From Psammoneis japonica (Eukaryota), in NCBI GenBank assembly GCA_008632985.1, contig QPGO01000328.1, forward strand, positions 1 to 53,784: a stretch of 53,784 bases of DNA, given 5' to 3'. The notes under the pieces are model-generated. The model ran no database searches. It was not told the DNA's origin and saw only the letters and a list, made by a program, of their open reading frames with translations. This document shows, piece by piece, positions 1 through 46,570 of this stretch. A program made the translations under genes and the position numbers. Numbering within the stretch: position 1 is the first letter of the stretch; every line of letters starts with the position of its first letter.

Positions 1-722
1 GAGGAAGAGCGCACATGCGCCATTGTGTGCCAAGGATCAGCAAAGTCTGGCGGACAGTTGACAACGATGAATGCAACAAGGTGTGTCGCTTCAATTCATT
101 CGTGTCAGATGTCCCATCACAATGAGAGCATCAATGTGGATGCAAATGACGACGATTCTCTGCATCGCTGCTTGGTTGCTCAGGTGAATGTCTCTCACAA
201 CAACATTGGGGGAGACGGGCCACATGACCAGCACAATCTGGATGTCCACCCGGATTGTGCCGAGTGGAAACGGGTGCACACACTGTCGACCTTGAGTCGT
301 GCATCGACTGTCACGCCCGAGATGCTCTCCAAGAGGTGGAACATTGGCCTGATGGCCACCCAGAACACCTGACAGTGACAACCCAGGCAGGGGTCTGCAA
401 TGTCAAGATCTTGGATTGCATGAGCTCTGGGTTCACGCTCAAGGACAGAAGTGTCTGCGAGCCGGAGGAACACTTGGGCGCCCAGATCAGAAAGTGCCAG
501 TTGTCTGACTTGGAAAGCAACTCATGCTGGGCCATGTCCTCTGACCTTTGTGTGAAATGGGCATTGGCTGATGTTGAGTTGGAGCTCAAGAAAACTGACA
601 GGCGTCTTCCGACAAAGGCGTTGAGGCCCTTGAGCTCAGGACACAGGCCTGAACTGGACGGCTGGCCTGAGTTGAATGCCAAAATGGCCAACCGTCATCA
701 AGGCTTTGTTGGTGTGCTCCAA
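1..722 (+). mobile_element. Ty1/copia (CoDi-like) LTR retrotransposon pol remnant, internally deleted
   Basis: TPEMLSKRWNIGL..TQNT/LTVTTQAG resembles the pre-integrase region. It is joined directly to RT C-terminal motifs EPEEHLGAQI, WAMSSDLCVK, PLSSGHRPELD and RHQGFVGVL (expected EYLG, YVK, GYRPELD, RYQ). Confidence 0.8.
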
Positions 723-724
723 GT

Positions 725-1098
725 TGTTTGTTTTTCTTGAAAAGACATGTTTGTTTTTGTCAAAAAGACATGTTTGTTTTCCTTGAAACAACATGTTTGT
801 TTTCCTTCCTTGAAATGACGTGTTTGTTTTCCTTGAAAAGACATGTTTGTTTTCTTTGAAACAACATGTTTGTTTTCCTTGAAATGACATGTTTGTTTTC
901 CTTGAAATGACATGTTTGTTTTCCTTGAAAAGACATGTTTGTTTTCTTTGAAAAGACATGTTTGTTTTCCTTGAAAAGACATGTTTGTTTTCCTTGAAAA
1001 GACATGTTTTCTTTCCTTGAAATGACATGTTTGTTTTCCTTGAAAAGACATGTTTGTTTTTCTTAAAAAAACATGATTGTTTTCCTTGAAAAGACATG
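725..1098. repeat. 23-bp tandem satellite, array 1 (consensus CTTGAAAAGACATGTTTGTTTTC)
   Basis: About 16 head-to-tail units with a 23-bp period (e.g. TTGAAAAGAC at 971 and 994). Confidence 0.95.
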
Positions 1099-1123
1099 CA
1101 TCTGGGACGCCAACAATCTGGGT
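1099..1123 (+). repeat. Left terminal inverted repeat
   Basis: CATCTGGGACGCCAACAATCTGGGT; the reverse complement of 14933-14957 is CATCTGGGACACCAACAATCCAGGT. Confidence 0.85.
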
Positions 1124-1391
1124 CTGACTGTCTGCCATGATCTGGGTGTTTCTTGACTTTAACGCCAGATCATTGTCAACTTACAAGCCAATTCTCTCCT
1201 CAAATGTGATGTGAGAACTGTGTGAGTTTATGGGCTTCTAAAACCCAAATTGCTTCTCACTTTTAAGTGAGATCATTCCTTTCACATGATGCTGACCTGC
1301 GCCCCAATTAACATTTGGGGTTTCTCGTTCTTTTAACACAAATGTTGCTGCTTGCAATCCACCCTCCTTTTCCACCAACTCATCCTACATT

Positions 1392-2780
1392 TTATCTCTT
1401 TGCCATGTCGTTTTCAAATCCAAGTTCCCAATTGCCACACGTTGTTGCATCTAAACCGTGTCGCAGAATGCATTTTTTAATTTTCGCTTGTCCAGATTTT
1501 GTTGTTTGTTTCAAATTACGGTTGCGCACCAGTTTGGTTGGTGGCCATTGCGGCATTTGCTGCCGCTCCATTGCCTGCAGCCACTGCCTGCAATGGCAGG
1601 TCCTCTCCCATTGGCGCCGCCCATCCTTCCTCTCTCTCCTTTCTTTTTTCCTCTCTTTCGCATTTCTTGTTTTCCTCCTGAGACAAGTTTGTCTTCTCTT
1701 GCCTTCCATTCTTGAACCATGCACCAAATCCCTGGTTGTTCTCTCTGTCTTTCACCACCCACCGACATGGATCATTGTGCTTCTTGATCCCCTCCTTGCT
1801 CCATCCTTGGCTCCTCTTTGCCGATTCCCCCATCGCCTGTGCTGTGTGCTTTGCAGGAGCAGCGTCTTTCACAGATGGCTTTCTTCTCCTTGCAACATTT
1901 TCTTCCTTTTCCAATTTCTCTGCCGTGCCCTTCACCTTGTTGCAGCAGCTCAAGTGCACTGGCAGAGCAAACGCCTCTGACAAAACCGAAAGCCATTCCT
2001 GAAGCATGTCGGTTGTGCTTCTGCCAAACTGCACTTGTCCCACCACCGTCGGCACCACAGTTTCCAAGAACCACGCGCATGTGTCCTTGTCATTTCTTCC
2101 CTTTGTCAAATCTTTGCAAGCCACCAGCGATCCCTCTAAAGCAGCAACTGCACAGATGAAAGCAAAGGAAGAGACACCCATCCCGTCAGACAATCGCCTC
2201 CAACACAATCGCCGGCACGCACACATCTGCTCACCTGCCATTCTCCTCCCAATGTTGTCCTGCACATCATTCCTCTTTCAGTTGAGTTTGGTCCTGAGCA
2301 CCTCTTTGCATTCTTCCCAGAACTTCTCCGGTGAAGACGCCATGCTCCTTGACTCCTGCAGAACCAATTTCATGCAATCTCCTCCCACGGCGAGTTCATG
2401 ATTGAAGATTGCAAACTTGCGACATGGCCAAACACTCTCATTGATGACCTTTGTCAACATCGATGCTGTCAATTTCTTGCCCACCGCCGGCGCACGATCC
2501 AACACAAGACATCCCTCTGTGGGAGTCACCACCGAACTTGAATCGCCACCTGCATGCTGGAATCTGTTCAATTCCCCATGTTCATTTCTTTGTGCATGCA
2601 ACAAGGCCGCGTGGTGACTTCATGCAACACCACACAGATCAATCCAATGATTGTGTTGGTTCATCAGCAACTCTTTGTCATGTCCTTTCTCAATCTCACT
2701 TGCCGCTGGAAGTTGCACTTCCTCCCTCCGTTGCTCCTGTGAGAACCGCATCCTCCATTTTTTTTTACCTTCTCCATGGC
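1392..2780 (-). pseudogene. Transposon accessory ORF remnant, function unknown
   Basis: ORFs 2278..2604 and 1516..2265 read as one interrupted protein (EKFWEECKEVLRTKLN; AWFLETVVPTVVG...EWLSVLSEAFAL) followed by a charged tail. It resembles diatom DNA-transposon accessory proteins as I recall them. Confidence 0.4.
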
Positions 2781-3277
2781 TTCCTGTTGTTTGGAACTTC
2801 CGTCCTTTCCTGTTGCTTCATGAAAGGCAAGTTGCAAAATGAGCGCACTTTGCATGTGATTTTCTTGGTTTTGTTGTTGCTCGCGTGTCCTCTCTTGATT
2901 CAAACAGGTCTTTGTGTCATTTTTGAGTGCTCATTCCCAACCCCATGTTTGCACCTCCATTGATGTTTCACTGTTTTGAATTGTGCACCTTTGTCAGCCA
3001 ATCCAATGCACCAATGAAGATTGCAATGTCATTTGAATCAATGCCAAACAATGTGCCACATCTCTTTGCATTGATGCATGCATTGCGCCTCCTTCATGAT
3101 GCAACATCTGCTTCATTTGGCATGTCAAGTCATGTCAAACCTCCCATTTGTTGTCCCTGTCTCAATGGGTCATTCTCTCTGCTTCCCCGACACCACATCT
3201 CTCCAGTTGCTCTCTCTGTTGCCCAAATTATCCAGCCCACTTTAGTGTCCACTGAAGTGTGTTGTTGTCACTGAGAT

Positions 3278-4066
3278 GTGGTTGTCGTGAGTCATTCCCG
3301 TCATGGGAACGCATGTTCCCTCTGTTGCAATCACATGCCGCCAATTGATGATCAAATTGGTTGTTTTGCTGGTGGTGGTGTGGAATCACATGGTGGTGCG
3401 GCAAGCTTTGCCTTCTCCACCGAGGTCATTTGTAACCCCGCTCTCTTTGCGGCACAAATTCGAAGCCGTTTTAATTTCCTCGACATTGGTGGTGGTGTTG
3501 GCGGTTTTGCGATTGCCTGTCGTCTGTTTGTTCCTGCCTGCAATGCCCACAGCATCAAGTTCCACCGTCCCCGTCATGATCTGGGCTCTCAGTGGTGTGA
3601 TGCCATGTGGCACAACAACGCCAGTCGCTTTCCCACCCTGATCAATCAGGACTTCCTCTCCGAAGACGATGCTGTGCATCGGTTGCACCGTCTGAACAAC
3701 TTAAAGATTTTCTTCAACAACTGCAATGGGCAAATGCTTTTTGACAACAATGCAACACAGAACCAACTTGAGGAGATGCTGTCCAACAAGTGTCCTGAAG
3801 GTGCCATTGTCATTTCACTGGACGTGATGTTTTGTGTTTGTGTGCACAAATGGAGGCATGAATCATTCTTTGTTCCTGCCCATCCAGATGATCTGTCGTG
3901 GGGAGGCGGTGTCGATGGGCACCCACTTCACAAGTGCGCCAAGAAAAGAGACGATGCCATGGAGACAAGGCATTCCACTGGGAACGACCTGGGGTCTGAC
4001 ATCAAATGTGAATTCAAGCCTGCCAAAAGTGGGCAACTTTGCAATTCCCCTTTGTTTGTGATGTGA
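3278..4066 (+). pseudogene. DOT1-like (H3K79) class I SAM-dependent methyltransferase, transposon cargo
   Basis: DOT1-like motifs occur in order: ESHG (SYGE), FLDIGGGVG (FxDLGSGVG), QDFL (GDFL), IFFNN (IFVNN), PEGAIVISL (KEGxRIVS), LSWGG..PLH (VSWT..YY). There is no Tyr in 262 aa. Confidence 0.7.
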
Positions 4067-4191
4067 CTTTCGTCTGTGCAAGCAATGCATTGTCAATTGG
4101 CCCTTCACACAAACCTGCTTTTTACCTGCATCAACTTGCTGCTTCACCAGTTTTGCATTCCAACACCTGCTTGTTCACATGCTTGCCATGT

Positions 4192-5141
4192 TCACATGCT
4201 TGCCATGTCAAAATTGTGGACTGGACATGCCATGTTCCTTCGATCCGAGTTCGTTTTGTCAGGCAAAGCTTGGCGCGACATTCTTGCATCAAAAACAAAT
4301 GCAGTGCCTGCTTCTCCAGCCAGTGATTGTTTTTCCAAACCCAACCTGACCAAGTGTCTTTCACGTTCCTTCTCATTCAATGTCACCTCACAACCATCCG
4401 GCCATGTCTCAGCTGTGCCATTGTGCTCCGTTGCGTTGTTGAGGAACAGAAACATGGTGAAAATTTTGTCACCAGGTGACAATTTGGTTTCCACGCAATC
4501 GCAATGAATTTCCCCTTTGACCAGAAGTTTGATCTTGAACGTGAAGCAGGAGCATTTGCTGCTGTGTGTCGGGACATCTTTCTGCTTGAATCACCTGCCA
4601 GGGGAAAGCCAGGAATTAACTCCAACATTTTCTCTGCCAACCCAATGCCTTCCGCCTTGTCCTTTTTGTTGATGGCAAACTCGCCGACAAAACGGTGTCC
4701 TTCCTTCTCTCCCTCACCACTTGGTGCCTTGTTTGCCAGTGTTGTTGTCTTGTTGAGCAGGGGTGGTGGTGTTTTGAATTTTTGCAAGTGGCCTTTTTTT
4801 CTTTCCTGGTGCTCTTTTTCTTTGGACCCCGCCGTCTCACTCTTGACGACATGAGATTTCATTTCGCCCGGGTGTGTCAGCAACTTGCCATGTTTCTGGC
4901 ATGACGTTGTTGGCCAACGGGCAAATTTCTGGCATCCGTTCACAGAACACTTCTGCGCCATTCTCTGAAAATGCCTGTTCTGCCAAATCAAATGGTGCCT
5001 GGTCTTTTTCTTTAAGTGGAGCAGACCCAATCCAGCGAAAGTCTGCACCCATTGCTTTCCAACAAAAACGGCTTTCTTGCTAAATGTGTGTTGCCAACGG
5101 CAGTCCATCTGTTGTGTGCACCACAGATGTTTTTTTCGCAA
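4192..5141 (-). pseudogene. Zn-finger + 2OG-Fe(II) dioxygenase (PhyH-like DSBH fold), transposon cargo, frameshift near 4515
   Basis: The frame of ORF 4192..4494 extended upstream reads KGEIHCDC (HxD). It continues TMFLFLNNATEHNGTAETWP and GEAGTAFVFDARMSRQALPDKTNSDR (distal His position reads Arg; 2OG-binding Arg present). The N-terminal frame has a CSVNGCQKFARWPTTSCQKHG C-x4-C..C-x2-HG finger. Confidence 0.6.
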
Positions 5142-5228
5142 ACAGCCCCATGTGATGTGTTGACAATGGCAGTCTGTCTGTCGGGTGCACCACAGATGTT
5201 TTTTTCGTAAACAGTCCCATGGGATGTG
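5091..5228. repeat. 69-bp tandem duplication
   Basis: CACAGATGTTTTTTTCG occurs at 5122 and 5191. The copies differ at GCAAAC vs GTAAAC. Confidence 0.75.
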
Positions 5229-5954
5229 ATCTTTGTCGATCCTGTTTGCTGCATGATCTCATCAAATGTGTCATCCCAGCCATCTCAAAAGCATGGAAAA
5301 CAATTTTGTTGCTCACAATCCTGTCAGTGATCTTGTGAGATGTTTTCACATCCCCACAGCGGCAGACACAAAGGAAAAGCTGCCATCCACTGCACATTCT
5401 GCACCACAAACAAACTCATTTGGAATTTTGCACATGACAGACAATTGCAAATGACAGGCATTGCTTTTTTGGCAATGCACCTGTCTGTCAACAGAGCAAT
5501 TTGGCATCACTTTTTTGTTGTTGCAACCATGTGTTGACAAAGCAATTTGGCATCACTTTTCCATTGTCAAACACATCTGATGACAGAAGAATTTGGCATC
5601 AGTTTTTTGTTGACACGTGTGTCTGTCAACACATGCCTTTGGTGCCACTTTTTTATTTTTGCACTTGACGCTGGCCTGTGCAGCATCGTGACATGAAGTG
5701 CATCTCCCGCAGCAAACCACATTCTCCCGAATCTTGTCCAAGTTGCTGATCAACTCATGTTGAGCAGCAAACAGATGACGTTTGGGTGACTCTGTCTCTT
5801 GTCCTCTGTGTCCTTGTCATTCCCTTTGCAAAACAACAACCTCAAAATGATCCCACCCCAAAGAATGCTGCCCAATCCCTTGCCTGTTAGGCCACGTTGC
5901 TGAAATGGAACCGACAAATCTCTTTTTCGCCTGACACATCGTACTTCTCTCCCA

Positions 5955-8900
5955 ATGACATTCCACCTGACTCAACCTGCAGTGTTGACCAATGATCCAT
6001 CTGGCCGTTGTCCCCCACCAATGCATCTGGCCCCGTTTGGCATAGAAAACAGCCTTGACACCAAATTGAGGCCACATTGTTCTCCCACACTTTGGGCAAA
6101 TGAACGCGGTCATGTTCATTTGTCACTCAAAAAAAATGGTTTGACAGATCACTTGATCCATGGCATCATGCTGATGATGTTTGATGCAAAAATCTTTACA
6201 TTCGAGAGCAGTGGGAAGAGCAATGTGTGCAACCCAAACCACCTTGGTGAATTTGCAAAATGGCCAGTGCACCCAAGCCACATTAGATTGGCTTTGAAGG
6301 AAGCCACCCTGCCAGAGCTGGCTCGACGAAAGAAAAAAAGGCATGCAAAAAAATCATTGATGCTTGCTGCTTCCAAAACAAAAAATGCCAAAGATCCACA
6401 GCGGCGCAGGTGAGGGATTGCATCTTGTGCACCACCTCCAATTCCCATCTGTTTCTCACCTGACAAAATCATTGTTGATGTTTCCTAGAATGACACCCAA
6501 GCTGAAGGTCCAACAATTGCAACTGGTGTCGGCTCCTGTGTGGAAAGTGCAAATGACAATGACAATGACACAACATGGGTGGAGACGGATGTCATGGATG
6601 ACAAACAACAAATTTGGGCTGTTGCAGACAGCGAAGAAGATTTGCTGGCAAGGGATTTCATCTGTTGTGCTGCTTCCCTTTCCCATCTGTTCCCCACCTG
6701 ACCAAGTGCATGTTGATGTCTCCCAGAATGACAGCAATGCTCAAAGTCAAACAATCACCACCGGCATCGACTCTGTTGAGGAGGCTGCCCATGACAACGA
6801 CAATGACTCTACATGGGTGGAGACAGATGACATGGTTGACGAACATCCAATTGATGCAAGCAGATTGTTGGCAATTGGCATGGAAGCTGGTGGTGATTTA
6901 AATGGAGTGACAAAGATGCGCGCGACAGCATTCAAACTCAACGCCTGCTGGATCTTGGATGTGACGTTTGCACAATTGACAAGAGGATGTGCTGCACTTC
7001 CTCGCCAAAGCACACAGAGTGCGATGTTCTAAGTTTGCACAGATCAGCACAATGGAAGAGATTGTCCAAAGAGACAAAGTTCGATCACATTTGCTTTGAC
7101 TGCATGTGTTCAAACCCGGCCTGTCTCTTGGCTTCAGCTCCAAAGGGACCTTTTTTCTAAGACACACTCAGGGAGCTGCTGCGGTCGCTGACGGATGATG
7201 GGATGTTCTTCCTGCCTGCACACAATCTTGCATTTTCCAAGTTTTGGATGGAATGGAAGAAACAACGCATGTCGGAAGTGCACCCAATTCGCTTCTTGCG
7301 TGAAGAAGAGCAAGCACACAACGAGGTCCCCATCCTTCGAGATGAGGCACAAGCAGACATCTCTGCCTGCAGAAAGTTTTGTGCAAGGGAAGAATGCATT
7401 GAGGATTGTGAGTTAAAACATGAAGAAGTGAAATGGCTCACAGCAACAGATGAAGCTGCATTGGCGCATTTTCCAGATTTCGGGGGTCCAGTCAAACACA
7501 TTGGATCAACTAGAAGAAGAAAGGACCCTTGCCATGCACCAGTTTTTGCCGGTGACAACTGTGTGTTTTGTCCAACATGCAGTCTCAAGAGACACGAGCG
7601 TTTTCGGCGATGCCCATGTTGCAGGCCAGCTCCCATCCGGAATGCTGTGCAGTTTGATCTTGACTACAAAGACGTGCCTGACTCAGCATGTGGGACAAAA
7701 AACAGCAAGAAAACCAGGGAAGAATCTCTCCTCTAGCAAATCAAACAGTGCAACGCCAATCTTGTCAGCTGTTGGAGGCAGAAGGACCAACCACATGGGG
7801 TTGGTGGCAAGAACTGGGGTTTGTTGTTAACACGTCCCAAAAGCATTGGCAAAAATGCGAACAATGAAAGAGAACTCAAGTGAAAATTCTGCCTGAAACA
7901 ACCTCACCGGAAGTCCAACAAGCTGTCTGACACGTTCGACAACAACATTCCATTCATTGAAAAACCAGGCAGGGCGGGAACGAGGTGTTCCCTTGTCATC
8001 CACTTCAAGCTGCGTGCAACAGCACATGGTGCAATGGGTCCGAATGCTTCAAAGCAAATGTGTCGGCACCTGCAAAGCAAGGCAGAGATTCTACATTTGA
8101 GTGCTGACCACCCGCACAGGGCAAGCGATCCAACTCGTCCATTCATTTTGAACCAAGACACAATGGAGGGAATTGCCGACAATGCCGTCTTCAGGTCGTG
8201 CAAGTTTGACAAAAGAATTCTTGGATTGGGTTTGTCAATGCAGCTCAGAGCCATTGTTGAACAGGGACTCAGCAGTGGGTTGGCAAGAGAGTTTTTACTT
8301 GCAGCAAAGTTTGACCATTCATTTTGAGGGACTGTTGCCAAAGATTTTGATGTGAGTGGAGTGATTGCTCAAGGTTGGAGCCACCATGGTGGGTCAGGTG
8401 TTGCAAGGCCTGGAATGACAGAAAAGGAAAAGGACCTCTCTCCGAGATGCAGACAGTGGGTTTTGCAACTGACCGTGATTTTGGTTCACATTGTGTGCCA
8501 AAAAGCTTTGCAGGGAACACCAAGGTCTTCCCAGGGAGAAATGTTGGAGGAAAGACGAAGGTTGTCTGAGAAATGCCAAGTCTGGTTGGGTTGCCCAGAA
8601 TGATTGCGAGGTGTGTTAAAGCTTGATGAGGCAGGATCTCACATTGCCGGTTTTGCTTTCACACACTTCGACAGGGAAAATGAGTGGGAATTCCTCTTGG
8701 ATGACATTGGCAACGGTGTTGTCTTCATTGATGATTGGCGGGATTGCAACATTGGCAAAGATTTGGTGGACAAGCTGAAAAGGCATTTGGCCCCCATCAC
8801 CAACACCACGTTCAACCATCTGTCGTACAACCGAGAGATTGTCGGAATTCAGTTACGAAAGCTGCTGTTCAAGATGGATTGTGAACATGCAAATGCCCTG

Positions 8901-29400: not shown

Positions 29401-29605
29401 TCCGCAACTTTCAACTTCAACATGCTGAGCTGAAACTGCCGCCGCCGTCACCCGTGTGCGCAAGTTGCCAAGCAGTCACCCCTGTGGCAGGGGAGCTGTG
29501 TGTGTGTGCATGGTTGTGCGCGCACGGCTTCGCCGTGTGTTGAGTTTTAATGTCAACATCCACACGAATGTGTGTGTTCCACAAGCAAAAATTCCTGTTC
29601 CACAG

Positions 29606-31544: not shown

Positions 31545-31922
31545 AACATGGTTCAGGATTTTTCCTGCTACTATTAGCATTTGTGTACAAATGCATAAAT
31601 AAATGTGAGAACATTTATATAAAAATATAATGAATAAGATATAAACTGCCACGTAACCATGACATCACCATATTCTCCCCTACCACAGGGGTGCCAAGTA
31701 GTCTACTCCATCGCTCGCTTCTTATGTGGCAGGAGGCGAGGCAGGAGGATCTTTCTCTCGAAGAACACCGCTTCCAATCTGTGGGTGGCTGCCCACATCT
31801 CGTTTTAGGTTCAAAGTCGCTTTTCATATCTATGTTTCAGTTCGCCTGAGTTTTTCTTGTTGTGTGGTTGTGAGATTATTAAGTTCCTCCGTCATTATCA
31901 AAGTAAATAGAGAAGAAACAGC

Positions 31923-33463: not shown

Positions 33464-34045
33464 ATATCAAGAGCAAATGCAGTAGCATTAGAATTCAAGT
33501 TGATGCCGAGACATTGGATGATAGTGTTATCTAGACAATTTGTGCGCGGCGCTGCAAAATGTAATAAATGTTATGCCTTTAACCTTTAGACCGCATTATG
33601 TTGTTCCTCGTTAACTGTCACGCGACGCAAAAGCAGACAGTTGGAGCACCTGCTGTCGTCCTGATTTTTCCAAATGGCAGTCGATAAGTGCCTTCAATGC
33701 GATGTATAAGGCGCTCCTGCAACGTTTTGGACGTCACAATGTCCTCTATTTCATGTAGCAGATCATGTGCCATGTCATCCGTTGCCTGTCTTTGATGCGA
33801 GGGCTCCTGGGTTGTCGCGTGCGGGTCGTTATCTATAATGTGAATGGAACACGCCACTCTTGACATAGGAGTTCTGCTGATCTACAGTACCAAGATCGTG
33901 ATGGCATGATAACGTAAGTGACTTGCAAGAAATGTTGGTACATAGTTCTTTGAATCTGGCACTATTTTCTTTATTATCAACTACCAATCCAATCCAAATC
34001 ACCGAAAACATTCGACAAGGTAGCACCGAGACTCATACTACTCCT

Positions 34046-35373: not shown

Positions 35374-35963
35374 TGTACAGAGTAATAGAGTGATTCAAGG
35401 GAAGTGGGAAGTGTACCAGACAGAATTCAATGCCGGTATACGGATACGTGTAGCTCAGACTCGAGTCGAGAGGTAAAGAAGCCTTCGAAACAATCAATGA
35501 GAATTGCAGCAGCTTGCAACTACTGTATTGTGACACCAAAAGATAGTCGCCGTCCGTCCGAACTCAAGCGAATGACGACATCACGTTGCGCCATCTTTCT
35601 TGGTCCGTCATCGCGCATGATCTGGAAAAAACTCTCATTTACGTAGGTTTCTACGTAGCTTCAGTACCAGCTAAGCCATTGCGCGCGACAGAGTGGAGAG
35701 TGTTTCCCGCAAATTTTTCAGAGTTAGGAAGTTGTGCTGCTTCAACTTCATGTTGTCGCGCGCGAGCGCTCGTTCACAAAGTAAAAAGCACAACACACAA
35801 CATCTCGAAGTCGACGAAAGATCAAACGATCGTAGGGTCTAGAGAGAGTAGAGAGTAGAGTTGTTGTTGTTCTTGTGTTGTTACTGTCGTTGGGTTGTTT
35901 CAGAGTAGCGCGGTGTAACTTTACAGATAGAAATAGAGAGAGTTAGAGGAAGAAAGAGACGTC

Positions 35964-37283
35964 ATGGAACCATCAACATCCACTGCTACCCAGCACCATA
36001 CCGTGCTCTGTCATGACGTGATTGTATGCAACAACAACAAGAACAATTCCAAGCTGCAACCCCGCTGCATCCCATCCAACTTTCAATGTGGAGAACAGAA
36101 GCTGCAAGATGTAGATACATATGATGAGTATGAAAATCCAGGTCGTATTGAATTTTATTGTACGGTACCATCTCCACCAGGTCGCCTTGCATTTCGTTGC
36201 CGAGACAGATCAGTCGGAGTCTTGGATGCCAGTCGAGGCGACAAACATGTATTGACCAATGAGGTTATGCGTATGAAACGTAATAAAAAAAAGGAACAAG
36301 AAGATGAGCAACATCAGGTTGATCCCTTCTTTTTTGATGACGGATACACACTTGCTGGTCGGACGGGCTTTCAAGTATGGGCCGGCTCACGCTTGTTGTT
36401 AGAGTCCTTGTTGTATTCTTATTCAGGTGATAACAACAGCAGTAGAGCTGACCCACCACGGCTGATTTACTGGCAGGAAAGACTACTTTTGGGGAAAGAA
36501 TGCAGAGGCTACATGAATAGGACCACCAACATTTTGGAATTGGGAGCCGGCGTCGGTCTGGTAGGGATCAGCTTGGCAGCGGCGTCAGGTACCAACCATG
36601 TACTGCTCACCGATCTGCCGACCCTCGTAGAGCATTCCGTCGAGCCCAATTTGAAAAGAAATTCTGTAGAGAGTGAAGATGGGGATGATGAATCAATGCA
36701 TTCGCCGCCAGAGTGGTTGTCAGCCTTGGCGTCTTACTCGGAGGTTTATCCGATGAGCTCTCCTGCTGGTGCTGGTTGTGGTACTCGCGGTTTCGCAGCA
36801 GCCACACCACTGGACTGGACCAAGCCGTTACATAATCAATTGCAGCATGTGCGCTACTTGAACAATGTAGACTTGATCGTCGCCAGCGATTGTGTGTGGC
36901 TTACGTCCATGTTGGAAGCATTGCTGGACACGGTTTCAAGCATTTTTGATGCAGCGCCCAAGGCCAGTTTTATTCTGTCTCTGCAGCGACGCGACAACAA
37001 TGATGCTATTGAAAGTAATGGGAGTGGTCTTGTTGGAACTGACTTTAGTACCATGTTTACCACGGTGGAATCGGTCGTTGAGGCCATCCAAATGCGAGGA
37101 TGGCACTGGGAATGTTTGGCGTGGCGGTATACGCTGGTTGAATCAGAGCAAGAGGAGCAAAACAATGACAATGATATTGACGATAACAATGAGGACGGTG
37201 GATCGCTACGCAAGCAAGTATACGTCTTGGAAGTGCGTCGACAAGAAAAAGGAGAAGAGGAAGACGGGATCGGTAGACAATAA
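35964..37283 (+). CDS. METTL21/Methyltransf_16-family protein-lysine methyltransferase
   Basis: Motifs RTGFQVWAGSRLL, ILELGAGVGLVG, VLLTDLP, LDW and DLIVASDCVW in a 439-aa ORF. Confidence 0.85.
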   Translation: MEPSTSTATQHHTVLCHDVIVCNNNKNNSKLQPRCIPSNFQCGEQKLQDVDTYDEYENPGRIEFYCTVPSPPGRLAFRCRDRSVGVLDASRGDKHVLTNEVMRMKRNKKKEQEDEQHQVDPFFFDDGYTLAGRTGFQVWAGSRLLLESLLYSYSGDNNSSRADPPRLIYWQERLLLGKECRGYMNRTTNILELGAGVGLVGISLAAASGTNHVLLTDLPTLVEHSVEPNLKRNSVESEDGDDESMHSPPEWLSALASYSEVYPMSSPAGAGCGTRGFAAATPLDWTKPLHNQLQHVRYLNNVDLIVASDCVWLTSMLEALLDTVSSIFDAAPKASFILSLQRRDNNDAIESNGSGLVGTDFSTMFTTVESVVEAIQMRGWHWECLAWRYTLVESEQEEQNNDNDIDDNNEDGGSLRKQVYVLEVRRQEKGEEEDGIGRQ

Positions 37284-37539
37284 CACCAAGTACGAAATTT
37301 TGCAATCACGAGTTCGTTCCAAGCAAAAAAACGTCGGTGGCATTTCATTGTTTGCACGCTGACTGAGTAACGGTATTCTCTACGATAGTAAAGGATGAGA
37401 CTACAGACAATTCTCCTCTTTGTTAATCTTCTTCCAATAGCATACCGTATTGCACCGTACTTCTTTCTGCTACGAAGTAGCAGTTTGGCCTTTTTCGAAG
37501 GACGTTCATTGTCGCGGAACATGTAGCTCTAAGTCGTTG

Positions 37540-39875
37540 CTACCGCAAGCGAAAAAGCCTTGCATGGCCTCCCGGCGTGCCGCGTCCCTCTTGATTCATC
37601 GGGGCACCAACTGCAACCATGTCTGCGTTGCTTGATAGTGATACCGATGTGCCAAACGCATCTCCTTCATATTCGCCTTCAAGGTCATCGCCAATCTGAG
37701 TCCAAATGCCTTCGTCAAGCTTATAGACTTGAGCATAACCAGTTCCATTCCCAGGCGACCCGACGACGACAGCATTGCCGTCACTCGACAACCCAACCGA
37801 GGTACCAAGCTTACCTCCAAACACTTTCCCATCGATATCTTGACCCACCTGACTCCATTGATTGCTGAAGCGTCGAAAAACTCGAACACTACCAAAATCC
37901 GCGTCTCTTCCCACATTTGCTTCATTGAGAGGAGCCCCAATCGCAACCGTCTTTCCGTCTCGGGAAAGCGCGACAGACGTCCCGACCGTTCCAGTCGCGT
38001 CTCGCCAAAGATTCCCTCGCTGATGAGAGATCGCCACCCAGTACCCTCGTAGGCAAAAATTTGAACCTGACCTATGTGGTCAAAGGGCGAGTCATACTCG
38101 GGCGCCCCTACCGCAAGGACCATGCCATCGCCCGACAAGGACACGGAACGCCCAAATTCCGAGTACTGATACGTTCCGCCGTCATCTAGGACTTGGCCAA
38201 ATTGCTCCCAATCTTCATTGACATAGCGATACACTCGAACCTGTCCTAGTATCATGGAGGTCTCGTGTAGTGGCGCCCCCACGGCAAGAACTGTCCCATT
38301 GCTCGACAACGAAACAGACCAACCAAAGAGTTCGCTCTCACTTTGTTGAAGAGACCTAAAGCCGGTACTAAGGAGTCCAGAAATACGAGTCCCAAACGGC
38401 CGCCAGGTGTTACCTTCAAGGCGATAAACGCTGACATGGCTTGCAGTAGAATTGCTTCTGGGGGAGCCAAACGCCACGACCGTGCCATCCTCGGACAGCG
38501 ATACCGATCGACAGCACTCATTCCCCGGTTCTAGTCCCACAATATTCTGTGCCAGAGAAGTCCAGGCAACATTGTCCACCAGTTGAAACGAAGTCACTCT
38601 TCCTCTGGTGGAACCTTCTCCCTTGTTTCCAATAGCCACTGTAGTTCCATCTCCAGACAACGACAAGGATGAACCAGAAAAGGATTCTCCATTCAAGTCC
38701 CCTCCCACCTGCACCCAAGACGCAGGAGTAAAAACGGTGGGCATTGGAGTGCTTACCGTTGGTCGGGGAGTCGGCGGCAAGCTTGGTTCGGGGGTTGGTT
38801 GCAAGGTGGACTCGAGAGTAGATGCCACACTTGGTGATGGAGTGGAAGCTGAGGTTGGTGGTGGAGTAGACACCAAGGTTGGTCGGGGAGTAGACGGTAT
38901 GGACGAAACTGGTGGCGTGGTCGGCTCCTGAGTGGTGATTGGTTGGTAGCAGTAATCTGTGCCGCTAATGCCAGTACCGGTACAGCCTGGCACTGCTTCA
39001 AATGCTTCTCGCTGATAGCACTTGAGCCCTGACTGACAATCGGCGTCTGAATTGCAAGCGCCCTGACACGCCGCGAGCGGAACGTCGCTGCTTCCAACGA
39101 CCCGAAGACTGCTTTCAGCAGTGCCTCCAGTCCCGCTACCACCACCATCATTCCCGTTGTTGGTTGAGGTTATTGCCACACTAATGCCTACAGCAAGGGC
39201 AACTATACCCAGCAGCACAATTATGAGGACACAAATCGTTCGACGATTCTTCAAGTCAATGGTCCACCACGAAGCATCCTGCCTGTTCTCCTCCTCTTCC
39301 ACGAGCCAAGCTGATGCCAATGCAGGCTCCTCTGGTTGTTGCGGTTGTGATGCTGATTGTACGTGAGCCTCATCAGCACTGCCGTCACCAATAACAATCG
39401 TGCGATTCGATTGCTCGACCACTCCTCCAACACCAGCCACCGCAACAGCACCAGGAGTCACATCCCTGGTGGGAAACTCACCAGCAACAGCCCAATCTAC
39501 TTGCTCTGGGGACGCACGACTCTGTCCCGGTGGTGCAGACACTGCCTCTTGGGGATCCTGTGGGGGAAGAGGTGTTTCTTGGGCTGCTATTGAAAATGCA
39601 GCTGTTGCGGCATGATGATGATCTCGTCTGGTCGTCCTCTTTTTTGACCCGCGTTTCACGTCCGCCTCATTTTTAACGACGGTTCTCGAGGCAACCACGT
39701 GTTCGGAGGAAGTCGCAAAATGCATTTCATACGGACCTTCATCATCTTTATCATCATTGCGTTCTCCATAGCGAGCAGAAGGGACGGCGGGTGGACGACG
39801 AGCAAACTCTTCGTCGTCCACCTCATGATCCCCATAGGTCCTCGAGGTATACAACTTGTTATTCATTTTTTTCAT
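37540..39875 (-). CDS. Type II membrane/cell-surface protein with Cys-rich module, Pro/Thr stalk and FG-GAP-like beta-propeller; 1-bp frameshift near 37982
   Basis: PGAVAV motif, one TM helix and CQGACNSDADCQSGLKCYQR..PGC..TDYCY, then repeated W.Q.G.D..G...G.SVSLS.DG..VAVGAP blades that continue in ORF 37540..38037. Confidence 0.8.
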
Positions 39876-42429
39876 GATGACGGGCAGGAACGAAACGATA
39901 ATGTTTTATGTTCTGTCCACTCTGTTGCAGTGCGATGCGGTTGACTGAAGTGTCCGCGCATCTATCGGCGATCTACCGTACAATATCACGTTGAGCGTCG
40001 TCATAGCAGGCGCGACGTCGAAACAGGGATCGATCCGCGCACGTGGGACTGCGCGGGATAGAACGCGGATGATTGCTTCGCACATCATCCTCGCAACGCA
40101 ACGCATCGCATCGCATCAACACTGCATCAACCATGAACAATGATTCCAAACCTAAACATCGAATGACAATGGACATGACAACAACACATCATTGAGTGCA
40201 ACCACCATTGCAAGTTGTGACTTTGCTGCTTGCTTTTTTTGGCCACATGCTTTTGACCGTTGTTGCTTTTGGAACCTGGGGTGCTGCTCCTTCCACAGAC
40301 CAGGGTTCTGCTCCAGCTGCTGCAGCTGCTGGAAAAATTGAGGATCTCATGCTCTCTGCACTTTTGGCTGTTGTCTTTGGATTTGACCACCAGCCACTGC
40401 GATGCAAAATTTGCGAGTTGCAAATTAATTTACAAAGACAAACAGCTCGTGTTTTTCACAATGACGGGAGCATGTGCGAGGTCTCAGAGCACTTCATTTT
40501 TCTCTTCAAATGAGCAAATGCCACTGTTTCAACAACCACAGGTCTGTGAGTGACATGAAACAATGCACCAATTGGGTTGTTGTCATTTAAAAAAAAAAAA
40601 AGAGTTGTTTGATGTGTTTTGTTTGTGACGAAAGGCAGTGTGCAATCGTCCAAAAAGGTCATTTTTGTTGAAATTTTGAGATGCGTCGGCATGAGTTGCA
40701 GTCAGGAAAAGATGGTTTCCTTTGAAAACAATGATTTCTTGTCCTTTCTTGTGCATCATTTCTTTTCTCAATCAAAGCAGAAAGAACGCCTGCACCTTGA
40801 GTGGCACCAGAGGATGTTGCCTGCGTGGCAAGACGATCTTTGAGGGTGACAACAAGGGTCGTTTCTCAACTTGCCGCATGGCAATTGTGCGGGGATTTGG
40901 AATTTGTTGCAAATTTTGCAATGTTTCAATTTTTTTGATTTGGTGGCCAGGGTGCTGATGTTCAGCCAAGCTGCGCACCTGCTCTCCAAGAAGGGAAAGG
41001 CTTTCTGCATGGCGCGGTGGTCATGAAAAGCGCTCTTTGGCGCGGGGCCTCTGCTGACAAGATCAAGATTGCAGAGCAAAGCATGTTTGTTTTGACAAGG
41101 GAACAAATCACTTGCCAACAGAACAAATTTCCAAGAGTGTTGCCAAACTCCATCCAATGTGTGGAACAAGGTTTGGCCAATGTCGCTGAGCTTGTGGAAA
41201 TGTGGCTGCCCCTGAGTTTGCTGTGTTTGTCACCCCCTTTGTGAAAACACTTGCATGTGCTGCAAAATGCTCTTCCTCTGACTGACCTGTGATGTTGAGC
41301 TGTCTCATGGACAGGAAATGCCAGGCCCAATGGAGGCTGCAATGGACTTCAAGGTTGCCCCTGTGACAACCTGCGGTTGTCAAGAGGGCCAGCCACCAGG
41401 TTCCTGCTGAAAGGTGTGGACACACTGATGCTCAACACTTTGCTGTCCAGTGCTTGCAGGAAGCTGGGAAAATTGTTGATGGACATGTTTTTGGGGTCAC
41501 AAACCTTGCCAACATGCTCATGGAGGAGGTGGCCGGTGAAAAGCTTTCACTCTTGCTGGGTGGTGGCATGGGCTGGGACAGCTGACTCAGTTGGCTGATG
41601 TCTGCTTTGACTTCTTAACTTGTTTTAATTTCATCAGAGGCCGCAACACAGTGGTCTCCACTTTCCTTTGTAAGTTTTTAATGTGCGTTGTCAAAATTGT
41701 CAACAAGCAAAATTTGAAAACTGCCGGCAACAGAGCTCAACAAATTGCAGTTGTTTTTTGCATTTTGTCTGATGTCTCATTGGCTTTTCTTGCACAAGCT
41801 TCAATCAAATGAGTGCAATGTTCAACTTGGTTGGAGTTGGCATCCATGTTTTGTGATGCATGGTTTGGCTTCCTTTTGACAGCCATCAATTTGAACTTGG
41901 TTTCCACTTTGGCCCTCCTCAACTCACATGCGTTTGTGTTTGCATGTGTGCCGTCTGCTTCACACACACACGTGACCCACCCTCCATTGTAAATTGCCTC
42001 TTCATGCTTCCCAGGTTTTCACAGCCCCTTGGTCTGCAGTGTTTTTGGCATTTTTTTCACACATCATGCAAATTTCCACACACTTCACAACAGTGCACCC
42101 TCACCCCAAAAGTCAAAAAAAGCAAGAGCATGTGCTGTTGTGATTCACATAGATTCTGAGCATGGTTGCAAATCTGCAAATCAACAACTGGCCATGGCGG
42201 TGAAATGCTTCACCCCATTGGCTGATGAAAGTGGCTCAACATGCTGTGATGAAACCTGCTGTCCTTCTGGTTGGTCAAGACAGGTTTTGATTGGGGTGCA
42301 GCTTGAGCTTTGTTGTCGTGAGTGTGCTGTCACAAATCTGCCGCATCCAGAATGCTGAGCTGCTGGCACATTGTTGTGTGCACGCACACCACAAACTTGC
42401 TTTTCTGCAGCATTGGCACAATTGCGCAT

Positions 42430-43000
42430 GTCAGAGTTTTGCACCCAGAATCACTGCAATTTGCCACAAATGACACTCTTCAAACAAGGCATGTGCAAAA
42501 AGAGGTTCATTGGTTTTTGATGCTTTCACCAATGGCGCGTCTGTCTTCTCCAATTTTTGTGTCCAGATCCAGAAAGACTGCAGGTGGTGCTTGTTCCTGC
42601 AGCTCTCAGAATCACATGCGCATGAAAAGTTCTTTGCCACATGTGTGACACTCTTCAAAAAAGGCATGCACAAAAAGAGCTTCATTGGTTTTTGATGCGC
42701 TCACTTGCATTGCATCCATGTTCTCCATTTTTTGTCCAGATCCAGAAAAACTGCAGAGGTGGAGAGTGGGGAGGCAACCCACTGGAGGTTGCCTGAGTTG
42801 CCAAGCTCATTTTCAAAGGGTTCCCAAGTCTCTCTGCTGTTTCTGGTCCATGCTCTAAACATGTCGTTGATGAACCGTGTGCAGCACAGGAGGTGTGGGG
42901 CAAACTCAGTCATTGCCACATGACTTTGTGCTTCGTGCAGCACCTGGTGCAGTGTGGCGCACATGCAGGCGGTGCTTGTTCCCACAGCCATTCCAGCAAG
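42430..43000 (-). mobile_element. Penelope-like retroelement reverse transcriptase remnant
   Basis: GMAVGTSTACMCATLH..LHE (G.AMGT..A..YA), LLCCTRFINDMFRAW (YxRFIDD), AVFLDL and KPMKLFLCMP (KPMNLYLY.P). Confidence 0.7.
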
Positions 43001-43109
43001 TGCACTCTGTGGCACTTGAGATGTTTTTTGCTTGCTCGCATGCTTTCTTTCTGTGTTTTCTTTGAGCCACAGGGGTGGAACTGGGTGCTCCACATCACAC
43101 ACACTTTGC

Positions 43110-44485
43110 GGGCGCTCAACATCTCACACTGCACACCGGTGTCCACGTTGCTGCAAAATCAGCAGCGCCAGATGCGCCAACACAACGGCAAGTGCATGTG
43201 TTGCCGTTCATGTCAGTTCATCCACATCATGCTCTCACAACATGCTCCATGCTTTTTGGCAATTAACAAGGTGGGTCAGAGCAACAGCACCTCTGCTGCA
43301 AACTTGCCTGCTCCAGAATCAGTGGCATCGGATGCACTGGTGAGTCCATGTTGCTGCTCCCATGGGTTGTGTTGGTTCATCTGTGTTGTGCTCTCACAAT
43401 GGGCTCCACTCTTTTTGGCAATGAATGAGGTGGAACAGAGTGGCGGCACTTCAAATCATGGAACACCAGCAGCTATCCTGCTGCAAACTCGCCTGGTCCA
43501 GAATCAGTGGTGCCGGATGCACCGGCAAGTCTGTGTTGCTGTTCCTGTTGGCAGTGTTGGTTCATCCACATTGTGCTCTCACAACAAGTTCTGCACTTTT
43601 TGGCAATGAACAAGTGGGGCTGCCAGCAGCGGCACTTCAAGAAAGCAAGCTGCAGCTGCTGGTTGTCTCCATCAGCACCATTCAATTTAAATGCAAACAA
43701 CAAAATGGAGTGTTTGTGGCACAGCGCAAATGATTTTAATTTCAGGTTTTGTGTGGACAGAGGGTGGGCACTCTCACAGGGAAAATGTGCCCCCATTTCA
43801 CAGCAAAGTGAATGGGTGCTCAACATCTCACACCACACACCGGTGTCCACGTTGCTGCAAAATCAGCAGTGCTGGATGCACCAACACAACGGCAAGTGTG
43901 TGTGTTGCCATTTATGTCAGTTCATCCACACCATGCTCTCACAACATGCTCCACACTTTTTGGCAATGAACAAGGTGGGTCAGAGCAACAGCACCTCTGC
44001 TGCAAACTTGCCTGCTCCAGAATCAGTGGCATCGGATGCACTGGTGAGTCCATGTTGCTGTTCCCATGGGTTGTGTTGGTTCATCTGTGTTGTGCTCTTA
44101 CAATGGGCTCCACTCTTTTTGGCAACAAACGAGGTGGAACAGAGTGGCAGCACTTCAAATCATGGAACACCAGCAGCTGTCCTGCTGCAAACTCGCCTGG
44201 TCCAGAATCAGTGGCACCAGATGCACCGGCAAGTCCATGTTGCTGTTCCTGTCAGCAGTGTTGGTTCGTCCACATTGTGCTCTCACAACGTGGGACTGCT
44301 CTGCACTTTTTGGCAATGAACAAGTGGCTGCCAGCAGCGGCGCTTCAAGAAAGCAAGCTGCAGCTGCTGGTTGTCTCTGTCAGCACCATTTGATTTAAAT
44401 GCAAACAACAAAATTTCAATTTGCAGGTTTTGTGGGGACAGAGGGTGGGCACTCTCACAGGGAAAACGTGCCCCCATTTCACAGC
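43110..44485. repeat. ~704-bp tandem duplication built from shorter internal subrepeats
   Basis: GTCCACGTTGCTGCAAAATCAGCAG occurs at 43141 and 43845. GCTCTCACAA..TTTTTGGCAA recurs about three times per copy. Confidence 0.9.
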
Positions 44486-46570
44486 GAAACAAGAAGTGTT
44501 CCTCAGGGGGGGGGGTTCAGGTCAGATCCCACAGCACAAAAATGTTCATCTGTCACAGCTGGCATGTTGTTGTTGCCAGCTGCACAACTGATGAGGTTTG
44601 AAAGCAAAAAAATGGACATCTGCAAAAAGAACAAAAACCACCATGAGAAAGAAGGCGTCGATCACTGTGTTGCGTGCTCTGATGTTCCATGAAGAAATTT
44701 GGTCTGGCCTCTCTTTTTCTTGGCTGGCAACCAGATTGCACCAATCAGGGGAGTGTGAGAACAGCCATTTTTGAGAGAGTTTGCTGGGCAAAGGTGCAAC
44801 AGCACTTTAAGTTGTTTTTTTTTTTTTTTTTTGTGCACACCCAGTGTCATGACACAGATGCTGGTGCACACAGATGGTGGGCTGGATCTCTTTGAAATGC
44901 TCCACACATGTTCCCTTCATTGCCAGGACTGCATTTGTTGTTGCTGTCTCCCAGCATCTTGTTGAGTCAGCCAACAAGGCCAAAAAGGAGGCAAGAAAGC
45001 TGGGGAACAACAAAACAAAAAATGAGCACCACAGCACCAAGCTTGAGCGCAAGAAATGTTGTGCGCTGAAAACCACACTGTGAGATCATGACACTGGCAA
45101 CAAGCAACCTGGCAATGGGAGCCTGCCTTGCTTTCAGCACTTTTTTGACTTTTTGCAAGATTGTCCTTTTGAAGCACTCATCTGAGGAGCTCCAAAGGGA
45201 TGTGTTTTTCTTTTTCCAGCTTTCCACTGCATGTGCTGTTGCACTCATCTGTCACTCTGATGGAACAAACAAGTGGCCTTGCATTGCACTTAGAGACAGT
45301 GTGCTCCAGCACTCTTTGAAAGGTCAAATGTGGTGCAGATGAGCTCATGCTAAAGCAAAATTGTTTTCAGAAAATGACCAGTGCAGGTCTTGATTGTGTT
45401 GCTCCCTGCAGCCCAGGTTTCATGGCTTGATGCTTTGAAGCAAATGTGTCAGATTTCAAGATGAGAAGAGGCACAGGAACATCAGCTCTGCAACTGCTTG
45501 TGGCCATTGTTTTTTGACACATTTCTTGTTGTGCAAGAGTGTGTAAGAAGCCATTTCTTTTTTTTTTTTCCGTTGTGACCTCCTTTGCATGTGCCATTTT
45601 TGGCACTTCATTCCCATCCATGACAGAAATGATGAGCTGCTCTCAATGAAAGTTGGCGTTGCACCCCTGAGTCCTGAGTTCCAGTGCATGTCAGCTCTGA
45701 TTGATTCACCAAGAAGTTTGTCTTGTGCTTGATGATGGCAGTCATCAGCTGCAACAAACAGCTCAATGTTGCGCATCATTTTGTGGCAGCTTGCCAAGCC
45801 AAGATGTGCTCAAACAGTGTGGCAAAAAAGCCACAGTTTGAACATGTTGCTTGTTGTTGACAAGCCATTGTCAGCTGTGAGACCCCCTGCCAAAAGTCCA
45901 ATGAGGAAGTCACATCACACAGCAGTGGCTCTTTTTTTCTCTGCCAGCACATTTCCCTCCAACTCGTCCATCAGAAACAAGCTGGCATTCCTTGTGGGCC
46001 ATCATCTGGCTGTGAATTGAGAATGTCTTGAGTTTTTGATTGTTTTTCAAAGCCTGGAAGTTGCCCAAGCAGCTGCATTGCAGGGAAATGGTGCAACTCA
46101 CACCTTGCACAAAGAAACGCTGCGGATGGCTGACTTGTGTTTCTGCAGCGACCCCCAACCAAAAGCAGCAGGTCAAGCTTTATGTGGACAAGGCAACTGC
46201 CAATCCATCCATGCTTTCATTTTTGCAATGAGCAGCAATGATCTGGAGCACTTTGCCTCAAACTGGCATTTTCAATGTTGCATTCCTTGGCACCAACAAT
46301 GAAGCTTGAGTGAGGATGAAGAGATGCGGCCGATGGCCAGCAATGTGCCACGAAATGATGACGAGGAAAATTAAAATCAAGGGATCCGCAAACATCATTC
46401 TGAGAGCCGCTTGTTATGTCGGCATTTCATCTTGGTTGGATTTGATGAAGCTTATGGTGTAGATGCGATCCCGAAAAAAGCATGGTCTCAGAGACCGGAT
46501 TGAATCGAATAAAGTAGGAGGCTGAAAGAAGGAAGATTGAAACAAGACGATAGTAATTTATCTTCTTTTT

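Follow-up and report, generated by a model that had tools for sequence, protein, structure and literature searches.

In a 53,784-bp stretch of DNA (contig QPGO01000328.1, positions 1 to 53,784; hereafter the window), we found that the dinucleotide TpA was almost missing from 35270 of the 53784 bases (66% of the window), in three blocks (B1, B2 and B3) that lie next to three stretches of ordinary genes (G1, G2 and G3). The best explanation overall, which we consider true with a probability of roughly 0.65, is that silent, repeat-rich DNA has been mutated to near saturation by a region-targeted process acting on TpA. That the mutational process is real, and that it runs from TpA towards CpA and TpG, we hold to be very probable. 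The blocks are as follows:

Positions 1 to 21141, no strand: TpA-depleted block B1, with observed/expected ratios (o/e) of 0.45 for CpG, 1.68 for CpA and 1.62 for TpG; after its final TA-free run the next TA is at 21142.
Positions 1 to 21141, no strand: contents of B1, namely a 23-bp satellite, a Plavaka-like transposase remnant, open reading frames (ORFs) with a Helicase-associated (HA) domain and a 320-bp tandem repeat.
Positions 23712 to 31528, no strand: TpA-depleted block B2, CpG o/e 0.51; the dense TA on its left side stops at 23711 and TA jumps again at 31529-31569.
Positions 40060 to 46371, no strand: TpA-depleted block B3, CpG o/e 0.30, CpA 1.94 and TpG 1.72.

TpA was mapped by sliding-window counts and block totals, the expected values being derived from base composition. 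The blocks contained 120 TA against about 2276 expected (o/e 0.05-0.06), that is, 68 of 1405 in the core of B1 (1-20560), 28 of 456 in that of B2 (23700-30950) and 24 of 415 in that of B3 (40000-46050), whereas the gene stretches G1, G2 and G3 had 90/184, 329/556 and 322/518, respectively (o/e 0.49-0.62). A first-pass annotation of this DNA had described TpA-poor blocks beside normal genes, and the two sets of ratios, which are far from similar, agree with that description. The longest TA-free run was 2554 bp (18588-21142); were TA as dense there as in the gene regions (0.039 per bp), the chance of such a run would be about 10^-44. Refined block edges were localised at 21142, 23711/24059, 31529, about 40059 and 46372, and the drop in TpA ended from tens to a few hundred bp away from ordinary genes. 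CpA and TpG were in excess in the blocks (o/e 1.62-1.94, versus 1.14-1.30 in the genes), and CpG was depleted in the same places (0.30-0.51 versus 0.89-1.07), a feature on which the earlier annotation had laid no stress. GC content was alike (0.475-0.499 in the blocks and 0.467-0.496 in the genes), and among the A/T dinucleotides of the blocks TpA alone was depleted, ApA/TpT having o/e values of 1.27-1.37 and ApT of 0.77-0.85.

The direction of the change was determined with a transposon remnant of B1:

Positions 10302 to 14277, minus strand: degenerate Plavaka-like DDE transposase remnant, recovered by tblastn of 149 relatives, in three frames and with one in-frame stop; used as the polarity marker.

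The ORF at 12510-14291 on the minus strand had the relatives P0121 (E 4e-53) and P0122 (E 2e-43), and a profile built from these two proteins led to 2164 representative proteins. The Plavaka family PF18759 was matched by 9 of the 24 relatives scanned, seven of them above the curated cutoff; the window's own ORFs had no PF18759 match even at E<=1, and the link to Plavaka runs through the relatives. Judged by these similarities, the element is a presumably dead Plavaka-like DNA transposon, as the Plavaka call of the first-pass annotation had it.

Codons of the remnant were considered if they aligned to at least 10 relatives and had a consensus of at least 60%, which gave 179 columns (tblastn/blastp tallies). 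Conserved tyrosine (Tyr) was kept in 0 of 6 columns, five of which now read Cys (TGT/TGC) and one His (CAC), compared with 121 of 173 conserved columns of other residues (Fisher one-sided p = 0.001 versus Tyr), and six ordinary relatives subjected to the same treatment kept Tyr in 17 of 28 columns. Since a conserved Tyr that reads Cys or His implies that TAY became TGY or CAY, these columns show that the direction of change was away from TpA, to CpA/TpG, corroborating the replacement of Tyr by His or Cys previously proposed for this element. One of the peptides cited for it had to be reassigned: relatives of the 'NPCG' motif read NPRG, so the change was Arg to Cys by CpG decay and not Tyr to Cys. 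Seven of the 16 conserved Arg columns were lost and four of these read Cys, Gln or stop, which are the products expected from CGN>TGN/CAN.

Divergence between repeat copies pointed to the same sites. The clearest pair was the following:

Positions 43110 to 44488, plus strand: tandem duplication, its two copies each about 700 bp long and 89% identical to each other, diverging mainly at former TA/CG sites.

Its 42 mismatch columns comprised 10 double differences in which one copy has CA and the other TG (20 columns), 11 of the CG|TG/CA type and 4 of the TA|CA/TG type, so that 35 of the 42 fell in the TA/CG classes, with 3 other transitions and 4 transversions making up the rest. Altogether, eight repeat pairs in the blocks had 335 mismatch columns, with 36 CA|TG doubles, 45 CG|TG/CA, 16 TA|CA/TG, 88 other transitions and 114 transversions, and none of the 51 mismatch columns of a control tandem repeat in a gene region (52868-53465) belonged to a CA|TG double. 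Such a double is accounted for by a palindromic ancestor (TA or CG) that was hit on opposite strands in the two copies, and its occurrence between adjoining duplicates implies that the change took place after the local duplication. The copy pairs noted earlier were all present at matching offsets (GTAAAC at 5207 and GCAAAC at 5138, CCTAG at 6484 and CCCAG at 6722, GCTATC at 43472 and GCTGTC at 44176). In contigs rebuilt from a public DNA run (X1), 14 of the 18 listed block positions at which paralogues differed were interconversions among TA, CG, CA and TG, including four with TA still present in another copy and two TG|CA doubles. The DNA transposon, the satellites and the adjoining tandem duplicates were affected alike, which shows that the process acts in place on DNA.

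TG and CA were locally balanced in the blocks, the variance of (TG-CA)/sqrt(TG+CA) being 1.0-1.3, as for a binomial, in windows of 250-1000 bp; this balance indicates that both strands were hit alike, and strand-coordinated editing was sought in the window and not found. Together with the Tyr columns, the CA|TG doubles, the sharp edges and the run contigs considered below, it supports the strand-symmetric A:T>G:C process at TpA that had been proposed from the sequence.

The sequence context of the loss was analysed as fractions relative to the neighbouring genes. The TA remaining in the blocks was 0.5% for RTAY, 6% for YTAY/RTAR and 35% for YTAR (R, purine; Y, pyrimidine), and by the 3' base it was 2% for TAT, 4% for TAC, 10% for TAG and 21% for TAA; TTAA was the main survivor, with 38 of the 116 surviving TA. 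Per 1000 tetranucleotides, the product YTGY (=RCAR) increased by 13.06 and RTGR (=YCAY) by 3.96, a difference of 9, and about 4.3 per 1000 of each gain was attributed to CpG decay. Where TA is followed by a pyrimidine that A was changed, and where it is followed by a purine the site was resolved from the other strand or left, which amounts to the rule 5'-TAY-3'. The edited A was thereby shown to sit in 5'-T-A-Y-3', RTAY being targetable from both strands.

CpG behaved differently, with 39-49% remaining in all three context classes, and a loss without context dependence marks a process distinct from that of TpA. The two losses went together over 500-bp windows (Spearman 0.74), but they can be uncoupled, because the segment 30950-31520 kept a normal CpG density and had only 3 TpA. 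These results show a second, context-independent decay of CpG to TpG/CpA overlying the TpA process, and it is owing to this overlay that the GC content has not changed.

A bias of repair or recombination in heterochromatin, either GC-biased gene conversion or biased mismatch repair, could also drive A:T>G:C, and it would be both strand-symmetric and regional. However, TpA alone was lost, ApA/TpT and ApT having the ratios given above and GC content being unchanged, and the strict TAY rule points to an enzyme that reads bases, so we consider such a bias highly improbable.

Stop codons reflected the process as well. TAA and TAG together occurred 2.7 times per kb in the blocks versus 17.2 in the genes, and TGA 23.0 versus 17.4. 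By the logic of the genetic code, TpA changes make no new stop, because TAA>TGA keeps an existing stop and otherwise TAA/TAG become CAA, CAG or TGG; damage to an element would therefore come by missense, from Tyr to Cys/His and, at ATA, from Ile to Met/Thr. Loss of TA-containing signals is expected in addition.

Deaminases of other kinds are known to produce clustered transitions directed against selfish nucleic acids, as in animals, where viruses and retroelements undergo ADAR hyperediting and APOBEC3 mutagenesis. ADARs act on double-stranded RNA with a preference for a 3' G, whereas the preference in the window is for a 3' pyrimidine, and APOBEC enzymes make strand-coordinated C>T changes on single-stranded cDNA; the changes described here are A:T>G:C, strand-symmetric and located in resident DNA that includes non-retroelements. 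An RNA route would require A-to-I hyperediting of transcripts by an ADAR- or ADAT-like enzyme, fixed by reverse transcription and re-insertion, and it is difficult to reconcile with the effects on a cut-and-paste-type transposase remnant, on 23-bp satellites and on duplicates in place, or with the equality of the strands. Although ADARs do prefer a 5' U, as a preprint on the alga Bigelowiella natans states, the TpA mutations described there arise in single-copy integrated DNA (bioRxiv 10.64898/2026.01.13.699255), and we regard RNA editing as scarcely credible for the window.

Further features of the blocks were as follows:

Positions 725 to 1098 (plus strand), 14958 to 15584 and 18703 to 19088: 23-bp satellite arrays in B1 (Tandem Repeats Finder, period 23, 16-27 copies, 82-87% matches; self-blastn).
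Positions 29606 to 29732, plus strand: left arm of an inverted repeat, 127 bp, 91% identical to 31419-31544 and CpG-rich.
Positions 31419 to 31544, minus strand: right-hand arm of the same repeat, which on its outer side ends at the boundary between B2 and the genes.

In several frames the 23-bp satellite gives a long pseudo-ORF, and its unit-to-unit variation gave no polarity information. The other tandem repeats of the blocks had periods of 69, 181 and 320 bp. Three adjoining ORFs on the minus strand in TpA-free DNA of B1 (17827-18752) matched the HA domain PF03457, the best of them (18205-18507) with an E value of 3.8e-10, above the cutoff; they may stem from a captured host gene or belong to an element. 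Rfam and tRNA scans of the window found nothing.

The first-pass annotation had assigned the affected DNA to four unrelated transposable element (TE) classes, and among these Plavaka was verified and the copia, LINE and Penelope labels were not. A Pfam scan of 402 stop-to-stop ORFs of at least 60 amino acids (114 window-wide and 288 from the blocks) gave no TE family, whether reverse transcriptase (RT), integrase or any other, and the same was true of 32 of these ORFs rescanned at E<=1; the peptide motifs quoted for the four classes are all present where they had been placed. The ORF named as LINE (16811-17914, minus strand) had no PDB match with phmmer and none among longer proteins, a search that left aside relatives near its own length, and its ESM Atlas neighbours provided weak RVT_1 leads. 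The ORF at the Penelope site (42704-43123, minus strand) gave mixed HTH/RVT_1 leads with few shared features in the same atlas. RVT_1 occurred in 11-26% of the members of the neighbourhoods of both ORFs, with scores of 0.91-0.95, which is to be taken as a lead only.

Copy number was approached by placing the X1 contigs on the window at 90% likeness and summing their depth, a sum that is not itself a copy number. The summed depth was about 58 over the genes, but over much of B2 and B3 it lay between several hundred and 6888, the maximum being in B2 and the stretch 41280-44599 of B3 having 1000-3000, which indicates that multi-copy families are present. The earlier description of the loss as repeat-restricted was thus upheld in part: the blocks hold a transposon, satellites and multi-copy families, but their remaining parts were covered at single-copy depth only at that likeness, and some depleted stretches are among them. 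Such single-copy stretches suggest that a domain of silent chromatin, and not repetition of the sequence, may be what is targeted.

About ten CpGs and one TA survive in both arms of the inverted repeat, within or beside TpA-free DNA, and both arms end in ACCATGA, facing inward. The 1.9 kb that it bounds had the highest summed depth of the run (3600-6900), and the 29.6-31.5 kb segment may represent a high-copy element whose ends or promoters are conserved. At the right edge of B2 there were 3 TA within 31000-31500 and then 20 within 31529-31723. The coincidence of this edge with the end of the inverted repeat fits targeting of the element, and the single-copy depleted stretches fit targeting of a domain.

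An artefact, either a modified base systematically misread in repeats or an assembly or polishing error, was weighed with the same run. Four X1 contigs at depth 53-60 lay wholly in the blocks (28000-28556, 28891-29425, 40662-40915 and 40890-41661), each with at most one letter differing from the window, and another contig ran from the genes into B3 (33328-40516). This separate k-mer assembly matches the blocks at single-copy depth, which argues against assembly or polishing error and makes it unlikely. The library type of X1 is not on record and X1 is possibly the source sample of the window, two points that would favour a misread base; yet an unrepaired I:T or modified pair would yield strand-discordant reads at every site, and the Tyr to His/Cys signature is also found in unrelated public records (ENA, NCBI and JGI), so that an artefact of either type appears extremely unlikely.

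Those records came from the 151 relatives of the transposase, among which the median Tyr content was 2.76% and two proteins, P0265 (1200 amino acids) and P0224 (1127 amino acids), had a single Tyr each. Conserved Tyr was kept in 0 of 6 columns of P0265 and 0 of 5 of P0224. P0265 belongs to a cluster of 8 members (ENA/NCBI) and P0224 comes from JGI. Five full-length members of the P0265 cluster, each on a different contig, differed from one another in 20 columns, 8 of them among Tyr, His and Cys and 3 among Ile, Met and Thr, and a difference between His and Cys takes two base changes unless both come from TAY. We take the P0265 cluster and P0224, on the evidence of their sequences, to be probable ORFs of hypermutated Plavaka-like transposons, 1127-1200 amino acids long with 0-1 Tyr. 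The best match to the window's 2-isopropylmalate synthase (LeuA) ORF in that collection was 74% identical, so these proteins are probably from other species. At the conserved Tyr columns P0265 reads His in 5 of 6 and P0224 reads Cys in 5 of 5; the split hints at strand-biased editing in the genomes of P0265 and P0224, unlike the window, with numbers too small for more than a hint. Two metagenome scans, one with P0224 and one with an alignment, gave no confirmed DNA locus for these Tyr-less proteins. Long ORFs devoid of Tyr and rich in His and Cys offer a cheap handle for surveying the process in public data.

The same proteins bear on the possibility that the composition was inherited or selected, the elements having arrived or evolved free of TpA, for example to escape a defence or nuclease that reads TpA, with no mutation in place. 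Tyr-less ORFs of 1200 amino acids remain open in the five full-length members of the P0265 cluster, as that explanation would have it, and the 29.6-31.5 kb element, with normal CpG and almost no TpA, fits a TpA-free master. Open ORFs are expected anyway, however, because TpA changes create no stop, and conserved, presumably functional Tyr was lost (0 of 6 columns kept). Moreover, satellites, DNA transposon and unclassified sequence share the loss with sharp common edges, adjoining tandem duplicates carry CA|TG doubles, and TA is still present in other copies at four listed sites. Considering all this, an inherited composition seems very unlikely, and mutation of the resident DNA at TpA is the explanation that we retain.

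A process of this kind is already known. A preprint by Mettrop et al. on mutation-accumulation lines of B. natans reports that 231 of 302 nuclear point mutations lay in integrated giant-virus and virophage regions. All but one of these 231, that is 230, changed A>G or T>C and did so at TpA, with rates of about 6e-7 per site per generation and in some lines only (bioRxiv 10.64898/2026.01.13.699255). It also describes 124 clusters of TpA-poor, CpA+TpG-rich windows, with RT/DDE domains enriched among TpA-poor genes, and proposes an ADAT2-like deaminase, an enzyme not proven there (bioRxiv 10.64898/2026.01.13.699255). The statement of the first-pass annotation that no characterised pathway does this is consequently out of date, since the same TpA>TpG/CpA hypermutation has been measured in B. 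natans, and the finding made here is not categorically new.

The two cases are alike in that TpA only is changed, to TpG or CpA on the two strands, in foreign or selfish regions of an otherwise ordinary genome, and in that the long-term footprint consists of clustered TpA-poor, CpA+TpG-rich windows. Both the TpA-only change and its confinement, here to three sharp-edged blocks with selfish DNA, were found in the window. They differ in the organism, B. natans being a rhizarian alga and the genes of the window being diatom-like; in the depleted DNA, which is transposon and satellite here and viral inserts there; and in the footprint, which is modest in B. natans (Rho TpA 0.45 in an insert of a nucleocytoplasmic large DNA virus, NCLDV) and reaches an o/e of 0.05 over 35 kb of 54 here. 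The words 'diatom', 'flanking' and 'trinucleotide' do not occur in the main text of the preprint (bioRxiv 10.64898/2026.01.13.699255), to which the present analysis adds the TAY rule, the survival of TTAA and the CpG decay superimposed on the TpA loss. We infer that the process in the window is the same phenomenon; what is new is the diatom-like lineage, the far stronger footprint and the sharper motif. A literature search, with subscription journals outside its coverage, found no paper describing a loss of TpA from the repeats of diatoms.

Fungal repeat-induced point mutation (RIP) resembles the process in the window in being a transition hypermutation that is regional and specific for a dinucleotide, operates on DNA in place and disables repeats. 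In ascomycetes RIP converts CpA to TpA and yields AT-rich, stop-rich DNA, the opposite of the change from TpA to CpA/TpG with GC unchanged and no stop made. It was ruled out as a candidate, TpA being nearly absent, CpA in excess and GC content unchanged. Deamination of 5-methylcytosine at CpG resembles the second decay, as a CpG deficit (o/e 0.30-0.51) and a gain of TpG/CpA are also found in the blocks, but it cannot remove TpA. The first-pass annotation had set both aside as explanations of the TpA loss, and rightly so, the one having the opposite direction and CpG decay only overlying the loss.

As to mechanism, the A:T pairs of TpA would be turned into G:C, giving TpG on one strand and CpA on the other, if deamination in DNA made the adenine of TAY an inosine, which would then be copied as if it were G. 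A putative DNA adenine deaminase of the TadA/ADAT2 type might be drawn to foreign DNA or silent chromatin and could thereby defend the genome. That the chemistry is adenine deamination by an enzyme like TadA, a proposal made by analogy, seems to us nearly an even bet. The native site of TadA/ADAT2 is U33-A34 of the anticodon loop. The likeness is one of motif only: A>I chemistry is possible on DNA, and there is a pyrimidine on both sides of the A. TadA-derived DNA editors have preferences for YAC (ABE3.1) and YAY>YAR (ABE8e-YA) (PMC12528748). Such DNA activities were engineered or reported for single enzymes; the 5' T is strict in the window, where CpA piles up unedited, and targeting of a chromatin domain would need an explanation of its own. 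Stramenopile-specific deaminase-SAM-Tudor proteins have been described and provide a lead only (PMC3239186).

The target could instead be the thymine of TpA. A TET/JBP-type dioxygenase, for example, might oxidise it to 5-hydroxymethyl- or 5-formyl-uracil, or it might be modified in another way, and mispairing with G would then give T>C on either strand; because TpA is palindromic, neither the products nor the flanking rule would differ from those of adenine deamination. Plavaka/KDZ transposons are reportedly associated with TET/JBP genes in fungi. On the other hand, no enzyme that modifies thymine is known to us to depend strictly on TpA and a 3' pyrimidine, and miscoding by 5-formyluracil is inefficient, whereas 99.5% of RTAY has been erased here. 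YAC and YAY>YAR preferences do exist in TadA-derived deaminases (PMC12528748), and a thymine target appears unlikely in comparison with deamination of adenine.

Several points weigh against the explanation favoured here. The evidence comes from one 54-kb window, in which polarity was read from one element and six Tyr columns; the neighbouring genes were assumed to stand in for the ancestral composition of the repeats in the context analysis; and X1, as a possible source sample, is not independent of the sequencing chemistry. The single-copy stretches of the blocks weaken the notion of a repeat-induced change. Some of the depletion may have come down from master copies mutated beforehand, and not have arisen in place; at 29.6-31.5 kb, the high-copy element has lost TpA but kept its CpGs. 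Because TpA is palindromic, its sequence does not tell whether A was deaminated or T was modified so as to miscode. Finally, the substrates of eukaryotic ADAT2/3 carry A, C or G after A34, so that the rule of a 3' pyrimidine fits bacterial TadA better than an ADAT of the host itself.

Taken jointly, and offered only as a tentative conjecture, the observations could mean that deamination of TAY adenine in resident DNA is an old and widespread defence among stramenopiles, alveolates and rhizarians (SAR), present in diatoms and chlorarachniophytes, in which a natural TadA-like deaminase is drawn to silent chromatin and not to duplication. It would be a stop-free mirror of RIP that erases Tyr codons and TA signals, saturates diatom heterochromatin and leaves Tyr-less pseudo-ORFs such as P0224 and the P0265 cluster in databases.

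To our knowledge, until 2026 the well-described hypermutation defences of eukaryotes all either targeted cytosine (RIP, APOBEC) or worked at the level of RNA (ADAR). A TpA-specific A:T>G:C change of resident DNA had been the subject of one report on one rhizarian alga, and a near-saturated signature in a diatom-like genome suggests more than a curiosity of one species; the process may shape the repeat compartment of a major group of phytoplankton. For enzymologists, the TAY rule together with the resistant TTAA sites defines a concrete motif, one that points to a natural DNA adenine deaminase, which would also be of interest for base editing. In practical terms, transposon dating based on divergence would be wrong in such genomes, and gene callers report long Tyr-free ORFs.

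The gene stretches contain the following:

Positions 21142 to 23711, no strand: short island G1, with near-normal TpA (90/184), CpG o/e 0.89 and ORFs without a Pfam family.
Positions 31529 to 40059, no strand: gene island G2, with a SOUL haem-binding protein, a lysine methyltransferase-like protein and an FG-GAP protein (Pfam); TA o/e 0.59, CpG 0.95.
Positions 46372 to 53784, no strand: gene island G3, with a GST and 2-isopropylmalate synthase (Pfam); TA o/e 0.62, CpG 1.07.

The LeuA ORF was 64-74% identical to its best 120 matches, and the organisms named there were all diatoms, which indicates that the window is diatom-like and not from Bigelowiella. Spliced contigs of a further run, X2, cover G2, and hardly any X2 contigs lie over the blocks, a lack of cover that does not count as evidence of silence. 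The X2 contigs, labelled 'DNA?', skip 32308-32456, 34753-34841 and 46810-46887, stretches with GT..AG or CT..AC ends, and because these are intron-like X2 is taken to be spliced, cDNA-like sequence. Three short introns of 149, 89 and 78 nt were thus confirmed, in the gene on the SOUL side, in a minus-strand gene and in the GST gene, respectively. A scaffold gap of 98 N is present at 50155-50252, within the 2-isopropylmalate synthase ORF. The tandem repeat at 52868-53465 (plus strand) consists of 6 copies of 102 bp with 86% matches, lies within ORFs of a region of normal TpA and is probably a repetitive coding segment.

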